Positions 4,103 through 43,900 of a DNA stretch of 64,000 nt are shown in pieces (positions within the stretch are counted from its first letter, which is position 1; every line of letters starts with the position of its first letter). Made by a program: the position numbers and the translations under genes. The notes under the pieces were generated by a model. That model made no database searches. It saw only the letters and a program-made list of their open reading frames with translations, and had not been told where the DNA came from. Source of the stretch: a virus; the IMG/VR virus record IMGVR_UViG_3300030438_000078, positions 92,994 to 156,993 of that record. One strand, given 5' to 3'.

Positions 4103-4797
4103 TATTCTCCTTCGTTATAAGCGTCAATAACTTTAATAATCTCTGCTAAATCATTATCAATCTCCAATTCTTCAAACATACCTAAAGAAGTTTTTGCGAT
4201 ACAAGTTCCATCGCTGTTAGTAATAAGTTTATATTGCATTCTACCGTCATCTCCTTCACTTACTTTAGTAAAGAAAATATAAGTAAACAGACCTTCCAAA
4301 GTTACTTTTTCGGACAGTAATTTTCCAACTGTTTTAATAACATATTTTGGATTCATTACGTCTCCTACATTTTCACTATGAGTTAAGAAAACCATTTTGC
4401 AATCTTCTCTCATTTTCTCAGAATATCTAAGGATTTCCATAGCATGTTGTGCTAATTCACTAAACTTAGTATATCCTACTTCTGTAGCTCTATCAACAAA
4501 TTCATAAGACAATACATACTGAAAATCATCTACTATGACTTGTTTAATATTTGGCATCATTTTATCAATGATTTGAAGAATTTTCAGAATTTGATCCCAC
4601 TTAGAACTTACATAATAATTACCAGTCACATTCTTACCTTCTATTTTCAGAGGAACATATTTCTTTTTATATCCTCTAAAAGGTAAAGGTTTACCTGTAG
4701 TACTGATAATAAAAGTTTCTTTCGGGTCGAGGTTTCTTAAACTTGTACTTTTTCCAGTACCTGATTCACCAACAATAGCAATAGTCTCTGCAGCCAT
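4102..4797 (-). CDS. P-loop ATPase (RecA-like core; Sak4-like or helicase-loader-like)
   Basis: Walker A 'IVGESGTGKST' near N-terminus, Walker B-like 'VIVDDF'; 231 aa; adjacent to DnaB-like helicase. Confidence 0.5.
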   Translation of the reverse strand: MAAETIAIVGESGTGKSTSLRNLDPKETFIISTTGKPLPFRGYKKKYVPLKIEGKNVTGNYYVSSKWDQILKILQIIDKMMPNIKQVIVDDFQYVLSYEFVDRATEVGYTKFSELAQHAMEILRYSEKMREDCKMVFLTHSENVGDVMNPKYVIKTVGKLLSEKVTLEGLFTYIFFTKVSEGDDGRMQYKLITNSDGTCIAKTSLGMFEELEIDNDLAEIIKVIDAYNEGE

Positions 4798-5915
4798 TAT
4801 AATACAAAATTAAAATCATTTTCTTTATAATCTAATCTATTTGTATTATCTAGCTCGTTTTCTACCATAGTAGAACAATCATCTTTCAATAAAAAGTTTG
4901 GACTTAGATACTTATCATAATCATAGATTTCATCTGGTTTAGGAAGTTCTGCATAATGAGAACAATCACCATAGAAACCCATAGGTACTAAAATATCTGA
5001 AGTTCCAAAACGACTCTTTAGAAGAAACACCCCAATAAATTTCTGTTCAAGAATTTTAATGTTATATTTCTTATAAGTATTGAGTTTATACTTGTGAGGA
5101 CTAAATACAGCCATTACTACTTGACTATCATCATATAAAGATCCGGAATCTTTAAAGTCATTTTGATTTGGATCTTGCATACTCTGCTTTAGTCTTTCAT
5201 CACTTCCAGAATTTCTATTAAACTGGGCAACATGAATAGGAGATACAATCTTACATACATTTCTAAATCTTACAGAGTCTCTAGAAATAGCATCCATTTC
5301 ATCTTTCTTAGTTCTACCACTGGTATTTTTAACTAAGCTACAATGGTCAATACTAATTCCTAAGACTTGATTAGGATTATTAGGAATAAATTCTTCCCCT
5401 TCCCATCTTCCGAATTTTTTTAGAGTTTTAGTTACTTCCCGTATATAAACTTCTTCAGTTAATATACCTTCATAACTAATGATTCTCTTGTCCAATTCGT
5501 CTATAAAATCAGAACATTGTTCTAGTATATAAAATTCATCATCAGATAATATACAATCCTTACCTCTAGAGAATATCTTCTTAAATTTTAGTTCAACACC
5601 AAAATTATCAAAGATATACATAGAAATAAGTTTTGCATATACCTGAGGTCTTGTCATTTCCAAGTTAAACATCAACCAATATGGGTCTAGTTCTGGACAT
5701 TCTCCCTCTAGATAATGAATTAAAGGTTGATACATCAAAGCCCATAACATATAAGTTGATTTACCTGTTCCTGATGCACCTCCGATTAGATAACTAGTCC
5801 CCGGAAGAAAACCGTCCATATAGAGTTCAAGTTTAGAAGAACCTATACTTAAACCTATATTTTTTCCTTCTCTACCTTCTTTTACAAGGTTAAAGAACTC
5901 TTCTTTTCCTGTCAT
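4797..5915 (-). CDS. DnaB-like replicative helicase (C-terminal RecA-like domain)
   Basis: Walker A 'GGASGTGKST', 'ISIDHCSLV' (DnaB H3-like), 'VAQFNRNSGSDERLKQ' resembling the DnaB 'SQLNR...R' arginine-finger region; 372 aa. Confidence 0.6.
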   Translation of the reverse strand: MTGKEEFFNLVKEGREGKNIGLSIGSSKLELYMDGFLPGTSYLIGGASGTGKSTYMLWALMYQPLIHYLEGECPELDPYWLMFNLEMTRPQVYAKLISMYIFDNFGVELKFKKIFSRGKDCILSDDEFYILEQCSDFIDELDKRIISYEGILTEEVYIREVTKTLKKFGRWEGEEFIPNNPNQVLGISIDHCSLVKNTSGRTKKDEMDAISRDSVRFRNVCKIVSPIHVAQFNRNSGSDERLKQSMQDPNQNDFKDSGSLYDDSQVVMAVFSPHKYKLNTYKKYNIKILEQKFIGVFLLKSRFGTSDILVPMGFYGDCSHYAELPKPDEIYDYDKYLSPNFLLKDDCSTMVENELDNTNRLDYKENDFNFVL

Positions 5916-23664: not shown

Positions 23665-24270
23665 TTATCGTATCCTCTGCGAACTTTCATTTAAATTGCC
23701 ATAATTTTCAGTAAGAGCGTGACAATTTGGACATAAAAGTTCTAAGTTATCTTCATTATTATTAAGACAATTTCCATCTTTATGATGAACTTGTAATGGA
23801 ATTAATCCAGAATAGGGATTTGTTTCATGCCATCTGCATTTACAACATTTACTATCATATTTCTCAAAAATATATCTTCTAAGATAATTTGATAATTGAT
23901 CATTTCCCTTAATTCCTGTTTCTTCTCCATTTTTCCATCTTTCAATATAAGTTGTATAGGCATGTTCTTGTTGACATTTATACGAGCAGTATTTTTTATT
24001 TTCGGAAGGTAATTGTTTTCCACATACTAGACAATAACGAGCATTTTTGTTCTTATTAAAATGTTCATTATTATTAATTGTTCTTCTTTTTGGGAGTTCT
24101 ATACCTAATTTCTTAGCTTGTTTCTTAATATTTGCCCCAGTACAACCATATCGTCTACCTATTTCCTCGTAAGATAATTTATCTTCAAAGATAAGTTGTT
24201 CTAATTCTTCTTTAATATATTTACCCATAAGTGGACCGTGTGAGATTTGAACTCCTCTTTCATCTTGCAA
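23665..24270 (-). CDS. HNH homing endonuclease with N-terminal HTH
   Basis: 'VHHKDGNCLNNNEDNLELLCPNCH' HNH motif; N-terminal 'IGRRYGCTGANIKKQAKKLG' HTH; the start is more likely the internal Met at 24228, which avoids overlap with the tRNA-like element at 24232-24304. Confidence 0.65.
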   Translation of the reverse strand: MQDERGVQISHGPLMGKYIKEELEQLIFEDKLSYEEIGRRYGCTGANIKKQAKKLGIELPKRRTINNNEHFNKNKNARYCLVCGKQLPSENKKYCSYKCQQEHAYTTYIERWKNGEETGIKGNDQLSNYLRRYIFEKYDSKCCKCRWHETNPYSGLIPLQVHHKDGNCLNNNEDNLELLCPNCHALTENYGNLNESSQRIR

Positions 24271-24304
24271 GGATGATGTGCTCCCAGGTTACACTACACA
24301 GCCC
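24232..24304 (-). tRNA. tRNA-like gene, possibly tRNA-Ala (UGC) with atypical T-arm
   Basis: Acceptor GGGCTGT/ACGGTCC (two G.U), anticodon stem TCATC/GATGA with loop CTTGCAA, T-loop TTCAAAT but T-stem pairs poorly. Confidence 0.35.
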
Positions 24305-24461
24305 ATGTTACAAATTTTCTTTTTAATTGGTGAATATTTGCTAAAATGTCCACGACTAGGATTCTGTCACCTAATCACACCAGATAAGTTTTTGTATTGA
24401 CATTTACCTATACCTCGCCAAGGCTGGCTTCAACTTAAACTCGGAACAGATTTTTGTGGGT

Positions 24462-24535
24462 ATGGTAGGATTCGAACCTACTATCTTCTGCTTAACAGCA
24501 GTAGCTTATACCACTTAAGCTTCACTCCAATATCA
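24462..24535 (-). ncRNA. degenerate tRNA-like element (T-arm GTAGG-TTCGAAT-CCTAC, no matching 5' acceptor strand)
   Basis: Canonical T-arm and a D-arm-like hairpin (GCTTA-AGTGGTA-TAAGC) but the 5' partner of the 3' acceptor strand (CATACCC) is absent and no 7-nt anticodon loop can be formed. Confidence 0.3.
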
Positions 24536-24754
24536 TCCTCTTACATCTGTAAGTACCCCTTTGGTACTTACCTTTTCAATGATACATTATTTTCTAATAA
24601 TTAGCATTCCAGTAGGAGTCATAGCATATGTCTCTTCTACCTTGTTAATGTACCATTTAGTTGCTTTCTTCACGAGATTCATTACCTTTTTCATAAAATT
24701 TTAAGTTTTAAGTTAATAATTAAAAATCTAGATAGAGCTGCAAGAAGGAAGTCG

Positions 24755-24840
24755 TTGCGGATACAAGATTCGAACTTGTGACACCTTATGAGTGTTCCAG
24801 CTTATGAGACTGGCGAGATAGACCACTTCTCTAATCCGCG
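24755..24840 (-). tRNA. tRNA-Met-like (anticodon CAU) with 17-nt extra hairpin duplicating the anticodon loop
   Basis: D-arm GAGA-AGTGGTCTA-TCTC, anticodon arm CCAGT-CTCATAA-GCTGG, then ACAC-TCATAAG-GTGT hairpin (CTCATAAG repeated twice), T-arm ACAAG-TTCGAAT-CTTGT, acceptor CGCGGAT/ATCCGCA; 86 nt. Confidence 0.5.
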
Positions 24841-24896
24841 ATATTAATTAATTATAAAAGAGAATTTAGATTACAATTTTTAAACTTATCTTTTAG

Positions 24897-24970
24897 AGCA
24901 GAGTAACAGATTCGAACTGTCTCCTCGACCTTGGAAGGGTTACGTGCTGACCATTAAACACCAACTCTGC
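24897..24970 (-). tRNA. tRNA-Gly (anticodon UCC)
   Basis: Acceptor GCAGAGT/ACTCTGC, anticodon loop CTTCCAA, T-arm GACAG-TTCGAAT-CTGTT; 74 nt. Confidence 0.75.
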
Positions 24971-30136: not shown

Positions 30137-30245
30137 AACATTAATCATATATAGGCTGATTAATCCAATAATCAGCTTCAATATCTTCAAATATTTCCTT
30201 TACTTCTTCATCTGTTAATTCTTCCATAATTATAAGTTTTTATCG

Positions 30246-30319
30246 TGGACTAGGTGGGATTCGAACCCACAATCTTCAGTTTATGAGACTGCTGCTTCAA
30301 CCTCTTAAGCTACAAGTCC
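30246..30319 (-). tRNA. tRNA-Met (anticodon CAU)
   Basis: D-arm GCTT-AAGAGGTTG-AAGC, anticodon loop CTCATAA, T-arm GTGGG-TTCGAAT-CCCAC; 74 nt. Confidence 0.7.
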
Positions 30320-34574: not shown

Positions 34575-34644
34575 TGTGTTATAGTGGATTCGAACCCACT
34601 ACTTTCTAACATAGTTTGATGTTCTACCATTGAACTAATAACAC
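34575..34644 (-). tRNA. tRNA-like gene, anticodon arm not resolvable by eye
   Basis: Acceptor GTGTTAT/ATAACAC, D-arm GTTC-AATGGTA-GAAC, T-loop GTTCGAAT; only ~20 nt between D- and T-arms so a canonical 17-nt anticodon arm does not fit. Confidence 0.4.
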
Positions 34645-39424: not shown

Positions 39425-39632
39425 ATTGTTCAGTTTTAATTAGTTTTTCAAGTTCTTTTATTTCATTTTCTCTTTCTTTGATATATTGAGGATCAGGTTC
39501 TACTCCATAGAAAGTAGCTCTAGCTTTATATTGGAATATTTCAGCATACTTATCCGCAATTCTATCATGTATTCCCTTTAATTTTTCTACTGTCATAATC
39601 CAAAATATTTGTTGCTCCCCAGCAGGACTCAA
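39408..39632 (-). CDS. hypothetical protein
   Basis: 74-aa ORF; 5' end overlaps the tRNA-like gene at 39614-39694, so the true start may be internal. Confidence 0.3.
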   Translation of the reverse strand: MSPAGEQQIFWIMTVEKLKGIHDRIADKYAEIFQYKARATFYGVEPDPQYIKERENEIKELEKLIKTEQYEKKN

Positions 39633-39694
39633 ACCTGCGACCTACTCGGCACTAATTTCTATACCAAGTGCTCTATCAACTGAGCTATGGAGGA
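39614..39694 (-). tRNA. tRNA-like gene with enlarged (~14-nt) anticodon loop
   Basis: Canonical D-arm (GCTC-AGTTGATA-GAGC) and T-arm (GCAGG-TTTGAGT-CCTGC), acceptor TCCTCCA/TGGGGAG; anticodon stem CTTGG/CCGAG encloses 'TATAGAAATTAGTG' instead of 7 nt; 81 nt. Confidence 0.45.
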
Positions 39695-41231: not shown

Positions 41232-41486
41232 TCAGAGGATTTTTAAAAGTATCCCCACCGCTGTGGGGATTTTACAAATGTCCACCAAGAACAGACCTTC
41301 CTGTGCCACTATACTTTGAATTGTTTCACAACAACTACATAGTCTCTGGGCATACCCATTATGGTCTTGTAACAATTTAAATATAACATGACAACTTTTT
41401 TGTTTCACAACAATTTTATAAGATGGGTTCTCTATTCTGGAATCGAACCAGATCTTCCCACACTTGTGGTAGTGCCCATACACCAT
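41232..41486 (-). CDS. hypothetical Cys-containing protein
   Basis: 84-aa ORF. Confidence 0.35.
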   Translation of the reverse strand: MVYGHYHKCGKIWFDSRIENPSYKIVVKQKSCHVIFKLLQDHNGYAQRLCSCCETIQSIVAQEGLFLVDICKIPTAVGILLKIL

Positions 41487-41493
41487 TAGAGAA
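41428..41493 (-). ncRNA. truncated tRNA-like element without an anticodon loop
   Basis: Acceptor TTCTCTA/TAGAGAA, T-arm TCTGG-TTCGATT-CCAGA, short D-hairpin, and a CCAC-AAGT-GTGG tetraloop hairpin where the anticodon arm should be; ~66 nt. Confidence 0.3.
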
Positions 41494-43807: not shown

Positions 43808-43881
43808 TGGGGTATGGTCGTAATTGGTTAACGGGTCTGACTCTAAATCAGAAATTCTGGGTTCGAGTCCCAGTACCCCGA
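43808..43881 (+). tRNA. amber suppressor tRNA (anticodon CUA, reads UAG)
   Basis: Acceptor TGGGGTA/TACCCCG, D-loop TAATTGGTTAA, anticodon arm TCTGA-CTCTAAA-TCAGA with CTA at 43843-43845, variable AATT, T-arm CTGGG-TTCGAGT-CCCAG; 74 nt. Confidence 0.8.
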
Positions 43882-43900
43882 CAATTAAAACATTAATAAT

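Follow-up and report, generated by a model that had tools for sequence, protein, structure and literature searches.

The window analysed here is a 64,000-nucleotide stretch of viral DNA (positions 92,994 to 156,993 of IMG/VR record IMGVR_UViG_3300030438_000078), and its minus strand carries a gene for a transfer RNA (tRNA) with the methionine-type anticodon CAU and an extra arm in the variable region. ARAGORN calls the gene as tRNA-Met(cat) at 24754-24840. The minus-strand sequence of window positions 24755-24840 is CGCGGAUUAGAGAAGUGGUCUAUCUCGCCAGUCUCAUAAGCUGGAACACUCAUAAGGUGUCACAAGUUCGAAUCUUGUAUCCGCAA, and the RNA reads, 5' to 3' and arm by arm, CGCGGAU UA GAGA AGUGGUCUA UCUC G CCAGU CUCAUAA GCUGG A ACACU CAUAA GGUGU C ACAAG UUCGAAU CUUGU AUCCGCA A. 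By the definition of Rfam family RF00005 it is a tRNA, with a score of 52.8 bits (gathering score, 29) and the full model (1-71) covered; the model treats the additional bases as inserted into the variable region and marks the 1:72 pair as non-standard. ARAGORN, Rfam and the RNAfold minimum-energy structure (-24.8 kcal/mol, z = -2.9) agree on a cloverleaf with five arms. The bases that make tertiary contacts, U8, A14, G15:C48, G18 G19, U54 U55 C56 and A58, are all present in the sequence, and no open reading frame (ORF) of 60 or more amino acids overlaps the tRNA on either strand.

The variable region has 17 nucleotides (nt) and folds into a hairpin of 5 base pairs (bp), in place of the 4-5 nt loop of class I tRNAs. 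The molecule therefore has the structure that defines class II, a variable region of more than 10 nt forming a stem-loop, but not one of the class II isotypes (Leu, Ser, Tyr or Sec; PMC9976931). The standard view places all initiator tRNAs in class I and restricts long variable arms to the Leu, Ser, bacterial Tyr and Sec tRNAs. A sequence-only reading of this DNA had described an 86-nt CAU tRNA with a class-II-like extra arm, a form that is non-standard for methionine (Met), formylmethionine (fMet) or the isoleucine species Ile2, and ARAGORN, Rfam and the minimum-energy fold bear this out; no simpler fold exists with a single anticodon loop and a variable loop of 4-5 nt. Its further description of a duplicated anticodon hairpin stands in so far as the octamer CUCAUAAG occurs twice, 16 nt apart, but the gene lies on the minus strand and the second loop has 5 nt, not 7. 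Where a stem of 4 bp and a 7-nt loop had been read, ARAGORN and RNAfold add a U.G pair, which gives 5 bp closed by the pentaloop CAUAA, and the covariation of the closing pair described below agrees with them.

Two other readings of the second hairpin were tried and rejected. It is not the true anticodon arm, since both ARAGORN and the covariance model pick the first hairpin, and the 7-nt loop UCAUAAG would have a C at the U33 position on a 4-bp stem. Nor is it an intron, the extra hairpin being instead a true, conserved arm of class II style. From the sequence comparisons set out below, we consider that the gene probably encodes a functional, phage-encoded initiator-type methionine tRNA that bears this arm.

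Table 1. Parts of the tRNA(CAU) gene, followed by other features of the window (positions in the 64,000-nt window).
Feature	Position	Strand	Description
tRNA(CAU) gene, whole	24755..24840	minus	86 nt, C1 to discriminator A73; no CCA encoded; ARAGORN, Rfam RF00005, five-arm minimum-energy fold
Acceptor stem, 5' strand CGCGGAU	24834..24840	minus	C1 unpaired against A72; G2:C71, C3:G70, G4:C69; pairs 2-7 100% paired in alignment A1
D arm GAGA-AGUGGUCUA-UCUC	24815..24831	minus	A11:U24, G18 G19; from the ARAGORN drawing
Anticodon arm CCAGU-CUCAUAA-GCUGG	24797..24813	minus	Anticodon CAU at 24804-24806; A29:U41, G30:C40, U31.G39
Octamer CUCAUAAG, first copy	24801..24808	minus	tRNA positions 33-40; anticodon loop plus G39
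Extra (variable) arm, stem ACACU/GGUGU, pentaloop CAUAA	24781..24795	minus	Last pair U.G; flanked by A44 (24796) and C48 (24780)
Octamer CUCAUAAG, second copy	24785..24792	minus	tRNA positions 49-56; top of the extra arm
T arm ACAAG-UUCGAAU-CUUGU	24763..24779	minus	Rfam, ARAGORN drawing; compensatory variants in relatives
Acceptor stem, 3' strand AUCCGCA, and discriminator A73	24755..24762	minus	Sequence, Rfam, ARAGORN
Run of four tRNA genes	24231-24304, 24457-24529, 24755-24840, 24896-24970	minus	
HNH endonuclease ORF	23665-24270	minus	phrog_1271, E = 8e-16; abuts and slightly overlaps tRNA-Ala 24231-24304
Second CAU tRNA	30245-30319		G1:C72, C11:G24
CUA-anticodon tRNA	43808-43882	plus	ARAGORN label 'Pyl'
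Odd tRNA calls	24457-24529, 34575-34644, 39615-39694, 41424-41493	minus	

Conservation and covariation of the extra arm

Scanning IMG/VR for the exact arm yielded 13 contigs of 60-190 kb whose tRNA is the same or nearly so. When gaps were allowed, a sister clade with the pentaloop CGCAA came to light as well (L014, L029, L033 and L041), and one more member of that clade, L109, with the anticodon stem CCAGC, was found in a wider scan only. In metagenomes, 30 contigs have the same variable arm and 9 have that of the sister clade, many of these being human-gut assemblies of 155-189 kb. In 21 close relatives, for the most part phage contigs of about 140-190 kb from the human gut, the tRNA is 90-98% identical to that of the window, and blastn of the window against the compared flanks of the relatives aligned this 98-nt tRNA stretch and other tRNA genes and nothing else. 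Since the tRNA is conserved where the compared flanks do not align, either purifying selection or movement between phages is indicated. Among GenBank phages we found no close relatives of this tRNA, just 5'-half matches to ordinary tRNA-Met genes, and no similar DNA extending past about 270 bases.

Pairing is kept where the sequence changes. The T stem has the compensatory variants ACAAG/CUUGU, GCAAG/CUUGC and GUAAG/CUUAC, and a 175-kb contig (L296) keeps the acceptor, D and T arms together with a different anticodon stem, CUGGU/GCCAG, and a different extra arm, ACAUC-CAUAA-GAUGU. In an alignment of 13 sequences (A1), the five-arm structure is 97.8% paired and 13 pairs are changed on both sides; none of 500 shuffles reached the observed values, and partners slid out of register pair at 32-46%. 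The pairs of the extra arm in this alignment run through the types AU/GC/GU/UA and CG/GC/AU/UA. When all scans were pooled, 38 distinct pentaloop arms were obtained, with 185 of 190 stem cells paired (27-60% with a slid partner) and four to six pair types at each stem position. The closing pair is U.G in 19 of these arms, C-G in 11, U-A in 2 and A-U in 1, and because it covaries a pentaloop is favoured over a heptaloop. The pentaloop follows the consensus C-R-N-A-A, and the individual loops are CAAAA (14 arms), CAUAA (12), CGCAA (5) and, more rarely, CACAA (4), CGAAA (2) and CAGAA (1).

To define the wider family, scans were made with a pattern that required a CAU loop, then 10-25 additional nucleotides, a T loop and CGCAA as the 3' end; the CAU loop and a consensus for the T loop were thus imposed, as was the CGCAA end in two of the scans, and the counts are lower bounds and not frequencies. 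At least 119 loci were found in IMG/VR and at least 120 in bacterial genomes, and filtering for paired anticodon, T and acceptor stems left at least 88 distinct tRNAs from viral and bacterial-genome contigs. Metagenomes held 58 distinct arms on a single anticodon-arm type. Among the matches listed, the arms are of the window-like pentaloop type, a GNRA-tetraloop type (e.g. UCC-GAAA-GGA), a AGACAGUAAUUGCUUGU type and a AGAAGCAGUAAUACUGUGUU type. An AGACAG arm is found in the cultured crAss-like Bacteroides phages PhiCrAssBcn22 and 23 (genus Kehishuvirus), where the gene is detected by ARAGORN and by Rfam at 53.1 bits. The extra arm is a real, covarying trait of a large family, and not a one-off oddity.

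In PhiCrAssBcn22 (L280, OQ221557.1), positions 80-1585 hold seven tRNA genes by ARAGORN and Rfam, including the 85-nt long-arm tRNA-Met, and the GenBank record annotates none of them. The true long-arm tRNAs of bacterial genomes, among the matches listed, all lie within dense tRNA arrays, in Prevotella and others. Cultured Prevotella genomes, namely sp. KH2C16 (L237, 115-7944) and also L246, L248, L259 and L267, have the closely packed array Ser-Ser-Phe-Tyr-Trp-Met(long arm)-His-Cys; the KH2C16 array adjoins two integrase genes, a HipA gene and an excisionase-like helix-turn-helix gene, and is probably a mobile tRNA array.

No 69-70-nt version of the gene was found in the close relatives; the class I relatives are more distant and have the same D arm. 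This D arm, AGAGAAGUGGUCUAUCUC, is common to the window tRNA and many class I phage tRNAs, and because of it the extra arm looks like an insertion into a class I, initiator-like lineage. Indeed, it appears to be a recent insertion into a class I initiator lineage and not part of an ancient class II scaffold. The class I relatives with this D arm score 54-60 bits with Rfam and the long-arm versions 52-54 bits, so that the insertion of the arm costs just a few bits in the general tRNA model. One contig with a class I relative of the window tRNA (L032) also has a GOLLD RNA at 4568-5028 (RF02032, 229.5 bits) that adjoins its tRNA cluster.

Initiator marks and alternative readings

The tRNA carries the initiator marks C1xA72, G2:C71, C3:G70, G4:C69, A11:U24, G30:C40, A73 and the CAU anticodon. 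Of the three G:C pairs of the initiator anticodon stem (3GC; 29:41, 30:40 and 31:39) it has one, the three positions being A:U, G:C and U.G. A11:U24, G2:C71 and G30:C40 are each present in 13 of 13 sequences in alignment A1. Among the matches listed, G30:C40 is found in 87 of 88 long-arm CAU tRNAs, in scans whose pattern did not require it, and in these 88 family members the base opposite A72 is C in 39, U in 36, A in 10 and G in 3.

The roles of these elements are known from cellular initiators. The determinants of the formyltransferase Fmt are C1xA72 together with 2:71 and 3:70, and the mismatch disfavours EF-Tu (PMC6393288); the same marks also keep the tRNA off peptidyl-tRNA hydrolase (PMC6393288; PMC9976931). 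The CAU anticodon is a determinant for methionyl-tRNA synthetase (MetRS), and the 1-72 mismatch and R11:Y24 are formylation elements (PMC9976931). In E. coli the middle G30-C40 pair is essential and sufficient, au/GC/gu variants sustaining growth with growth defects in minimal medium, and mycoplasma and rhizobia have variant initiator tRNAs without the full 3GC set (PMC5389676).

We read the window gene as initiator-type because of its formylation and anti-EF-Tu marks, its CAU anticodon and the near-invariant G30:C40. From these marks we infer that the host MetRS would charge the tRNA through the CAU anticodon and A73, and that the host formyltransferase would then formylate it owing to C1xA72, G2:C71, C3:G70 and R11:Y24. 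The 1x72 mismatch would keep it from EF-Tu, and G30:C40 would allow it to function at AUG start codons, in the P site of the ribosome. The second CAU tRNA of the window, to judge from the two pairs given in Table 1, can serve as the elongator or Ile2 species, which would amount to a division of labour between the two genes. The earlier idea of a hybrid between initiator and elongator is partly right: the acceptor and D stems are of initiator type, but G30:C40 is the only one of the three anticodon-stem G:C pairs that is present.

Several observations weigh against initiator use, or against a link between the arm and initiation. The anticodon stem has one of the three canonical G:C pairs only, and in E. 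coli initiation is abolished in a full 3GC mutant (PMC6393288); efficient use as an initiator would therefore hinge on the host. A class I, initiator-like CAU tRNA lies 10 nt away in L008 and L011 and about 200 nt off in L109, so that the long-arm tRNA is not the sole candidate initiator in those relatives; L005 has such a tRNA or a second long-arm type at about 200 nt. Long arms are also found on tRNA-Asn(GUU), in 17 of 69 distinct genes at related phage loci, and now and then on Thr, Cys, Trp, Ile, Pro, His and Asp genes of related loci. Given these other isotypes, the arm may be unrelated to initiation; extra arms on normally class I isotypes are, as judged from the genes compared, a wider habit of related phages. 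The long-arm tRNA-Asn(GUU) genes are 82-90 nt in length, have a D arm of Ser/Tyr-like type and occur for example at L001, L009, L014, L050, L067, L082, L094 and L296.

These points bring up the alternative of an elongator tRNA-Met, or of a tRNA-Ile2 with lysidine at C34, which would read internal AUG or AUA codons and have a long arm by accident. Such a tRNA would not need the two G:C pairs that the anticodon stem lacks, an AT-rich phage could profit from decoding AUA, and the long arms of related phages on elongator isotypes such as Asn and Thr fit it. We nevertheless hold it to be unlikely, as C1xA72, G2:C71, C3:G70 and A11:U24 are marks of initiators and of formylation that oppose EF-Tu binding, the elongator or Ile2 role is already fitted by the second CAU tRNA, and G30:C40 is near-universal in the family among the matches listed. 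A tRNA-Ile2 in particular would have a paired 1:72, acceptor and D stems of elongator type and a C34 modified by TilS, and the 1x72 mismatch and A11:U24 speak against it. It is very improbable that the gene is a decaying pseudogene damaged by a local tandem duplication. The two 16-nt units, identical at 13 of 16 positions, do look like the product of slippage, but the 86-nt gene is kept at 90-98% identity in related phage contigs whose compared flanks are otherwise unalignable save for tRNA genes, its T stem and extra arm show compensatory changes, its tertiary-contact bases are intact, and it scores 52.8 bits. Equally little credence can be given to a class II scaffold of Leu, Ser or Tyr type that acquired the CAU anticodon and would place another amino acid at AUG. 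The long variable arm would suit such a scaffold, as would A73, which in E. coli is the chief determinant for LeuRS (PMC9976931), and allo-tRNAs are a precedent for long-arm tRNAs with reassigned anticodons (PMC5389517). The body of the window tRNA is, however, homologous to class I phage initiator-like tRNAs with the same D arm, of which the stem has 4 bp, and CAU is a dominant MetRS determinant; it has G15:C48 where LeuRS requires A15-U48, lacks the G73 of SerRS and lacks the G34 and U35 of TyrRS (PMC9976931 and the sequence).

The repeated octamer suggests another reading, in which the second hairpin mimics the anticodon loop as a decoy or second site for MetRS, an anticodon nuclease or a modification enzyme, and selection has kept the octamer. 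The presence of CUCAUAAG on 6 lower stems and of CAUAA in 12 of the 38 pentaloop arms points to a constraint on the loop, as this reading would have it, and phage tRNAs reportedly diverge to evade anticodon nucleases, it is said through substitutions in the anticodon loop. The mimicry arm, which was also among the possibilities named by the sequence-only reading, is in our view quite improbable. A pentaloop with a covarying closing pair differs in geometry from a 7-nt anticodon loop; if forced to 7 nt, its register is off by one and it has no equivalent of U33. The bases equivalent to CAU vary over the 38 arms (CAAAA in 14, CGCAA in 5, CACAA in 4 and CGAAA in 2), CAUAA is replaced by CGCAA in the nearest sister clade, and many family members have GNRA-tetraloop arms instead.

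Origin and possible roles of the arm

The top of the extra arm, C-U-[CAUAA]-G, consists of the same bases as C32-G39 of the anticodon loop. A repeated 8-mer is present in 563 of 20000 dinucleotide shuffles of the 86-mer (2.8%), and when the 17-nt variable region is shuffled, an 8-mer in common with the anticodon arm turns up in 505 of 200000 cases (0.25%, p about 0.0025); chance is an unlikely account of the repeat. Among the matches listed, CUCAUAAG recurs in 6 distinct extra arms that stand on different lower stems, and thus it is no private accident of the window gene.

A duplication within the tRNA, as proposed by the sequence-only reading, is a reasonable origin. The two 16-nt units agree at 13 of 16 positions, and the window arm has three of five stem pairs, the U.G closure and the whole loop in common with its own anticodon arm, while the other two pairs are changed on both sides. 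Kept from the anticodon hairpin would be the U.G closure, the first loop C and the terminal AA. In two other family members the extra stem shares 4 of 5 (L267) and 5 of 5 (L019, 10 of 10 bases) pairs with the anticodon stem of the same tRNA, with null probabilities of 0.012 and 0.0007, respectively. Against this, the 38 arms as a set resemble their own anticodon stems modestly, in 0-4 of 5 pairs, and the perfect match of L019 is absent from its loop-type relatives L352 and L376, so that a duplication origin is suggestive but unproven. We judge it about evenly balanced whether the arm came from a duplicated anticodon arm, CCAGU-CUCAUAA-GCUGG, with the loss of two loop bases; after such a duplication the hairpin would have been kept as a structural arm and its loop held to C-R-N-A-A. 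The alternative remains that the C-R-N-A-A loop and the U.G closure were selected for their own sake and overlap with the anticodon loop by chance.

Other explanations for the sequence of the arm were examined and discarded. Deletion of either 16-nt unit does not restore a class I tRNA, as it leaves an unpaired anticodon stem or a variable loop of 1 nt. The variable arm of the window tRNA-Leu(UAG) is similar, CACC-GAAA-GGUG against CACU-CAUAA-GGUG, but relatives with the identical extra arm have very different Leu variable arms and the likeness is a coincidence. The 3' strand of the arm is AAGGAGG-like and was considered as a mimic of the Shine-Dalgarno (SD) sequence; by a hand count the SD core is found in about 16 of the 38 arms, which is close to the expectation from the fixed AA-GG junction, and the strand is paired.

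With regard to function, the recurrence of several unrelated arm types on initiator-type tRNAs from phages and mobile arrays and the maintenance of the hairpin by compensatory change argue for an advantage, or at least for selection on a folded insert. The arm may set the initiator tRNAs of phages and mobile elements apart from those of the host, allowing them to escape a tRNA-inactivating host activity or offering a handle to a partner. A possible rationale comes from phage tRNAs that reportedly diverge from those of the host and so evade defences directed at tRNAs, the window gene likewise being a phage copy of an essential tRNA with a structure unlike that of the host's. That it is a fold-stabilising or tolerated expansion is a reasonable proposal, if short of an even chance; that it is a discrimination or escape handle for phage tRNAs is a more tentative one, and for the rest the arm may do something else. 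A bolder version would treat these molecules as 'class II initiator tRNAs', with the long arm as a selected, recurrent hallmark by which the initiator-type tRNAs of phages and mobile arrays can be distinguished from the host's, and with C-R-N-A-A as the contact point. We regard this version as doubtful; if true, the tRNA would be immune when an activity of host or phage puts the host initiator out of action, or it would have a dedicated partner, and in either case the element would control initiation privately.

Genomic setting and comparison with known tRNAs

The window has about 30% G+C and 14 tRNA calls by ARAGORN and Rfam combined, four of which form the minus-strand run in Table 1. The phage replication genes in it encode a DnaB-like helicase, a Toprim primase and helicases. 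The HNH endonuclease ORF beside the run may be a homing endonuclease that moves DNA of the tRNA region. An endolysin-like ORF is also near the tRNA(CAU) gene, and no genes for tRNA enzymes were found among the neighbours, just the HNH endonuclease, the endolysin-like ORF and unknowns. The ends of the CUA-anticodon tRNA resemble those of E. coli tRNA-Gln. Reading TAG as sense raises the coding density at 56-64 kb from 0.25 to 1.39; the window belongs to a large phage that seems to recode TAG in a part of its genome, probably the late genes. A gut origin is inferred from the near-identical tRNAs on human-gut contigs, and a host among the Bacteroidota is suggested, from the Prevotella and Bacteroides relatives of the family alone.

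A number of other unusual tRNAs were encountered in the window and in related sequences. Three of the odd calls in Table 1 are made by Rfam only (36.5, 50.1 and 30.8 bits) and one by ARAGORN only, as 'tRNA-???' with a 2-nt anticodon; the 80-nt call at 39615-39694 has a seemingly enlarged anticodon region. Phage contigs of 185-193 kb (L058, L067, L102, L122, L124, L177 and L229) carry an initiator-like CAU type, CGUGGAG..CUAGG-CUCAUAA-CCUAG-AAAUC-GU[CAUAAAC]GG-UUCGAAU-CCUAC, with what appears to be a 7-nt insertion N-N-N-A-A-A-C in the 5' strand of the T stem and not a variable arm. In L001-L014, L029, L033, L041, L109 and L296 (e.g. L001 2875-2966) there is a tRNA-like gene of 92-95 nt, AGGGAGAUACGCAAAUGGCAAAGCGG..GGGUUCGAAUCCC.., with a very long variable arm and an anticodon loop that differs between close relatives (CGC, CU, UUAG, AGA, AAA, CAA) and is sometimes enlarged. 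Finally, about 100 matches within L160-L279, in metagenome-assembled genomes of Verrucomicrobiota, Chthoniobacterales, Udaeobacter and Terriglobia (e.g. L217 1494-2830), are not tRNAs. They belong to a repeated element in which GGCUCAUAAUCCCGC-loop-GCGGGAUC is followed by the initiator T arm, the acceptor 3' strand and CCA, with non-tRNA sequence upstream; the element is often present in tandem copies about 270-330 nt apart and resembles the 3' half of tRNA-fMet combined with a GC hairpin.

The significance of the window gene depends on what the arm does. A functional arm would be an unexplored means for phages to influence translation initiation or to safeguard it. A neutral one would be a clear natural example of a class-II-like arm that arose from a class I tRNA, probably by duplication of the anticodon hairpin, and would speak to the long-standing question of the origin of variable arms. 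There is a practical side as well, since annotation pipelines overlook some long-arm genes or call them plain 'tRNA-Met'.

Among known tRNAs, the bacterial tRNA-fMet of the E. coli metZWV/metY type shares with the window tRNA the CAU anticodon, C1xA72, G2:C71, C3:G70, G4:C69, A11:U24, G30:C40, A73 and the 7/5 architecture of acceptor and T stems. It differs in having a variable loop of 5 nt where the phage gene has 17 nt with a 5-bp hairpin, and three G:C pairs where the phage gene has A29:U41, G30:C40 and U31.G39; the window gene is, moreover, phage-encoded and has no encoded CCA. The variant initiators of mycoplasma and rhizobia are closer in the anticodon stem, as they keep the middle G30:C40 with flanking A:U or G.U pairs and still initiate, but they are class I cellular tRNAs and none has an extra arm (PMC5389676). 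The class II tRNAs for Leu, Ser, bacterial Tyr and Sec have in common with the window tRNA a paired extra arm with a single unpaired base on each side (A44 and C48) and the G15:C48 Levitt pair, whereas isotype and anticodon are different and the window tRNA has a D stem of 4 bp with a 9-nt loop. Long variable arms on an anticodon that normally belongs to class I are seen in the nematode V-arm tRNAs, in which a scaffold of Ser or Leu identity has a swapped anticodon. The allo-tRNAs of metagenomes and phages likewise combine a long variable arm with a normally class I anticodon, but they are swapped-anticodon scaffolds of Ser or Leu identity with 8/4 or 9/3 architecture, whereas the window tRNA has a body of initiator-Met type, 7/5 architecture and a matching anticodon (PMC5389517). 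In the literature we found no description of class II or long-arm initiator or CAU tRNAs in phages, the coverage being incomplete and hence no proof of absence. Neither the 3GC-variant initiators nor the allo-tRNAs are initiator-type tRNAs with an extra arm, and the window gene shows that an initiator-type tRNA is able to carry a stable, covarying arm of this kind, as is seen in many phages and mobile elements.

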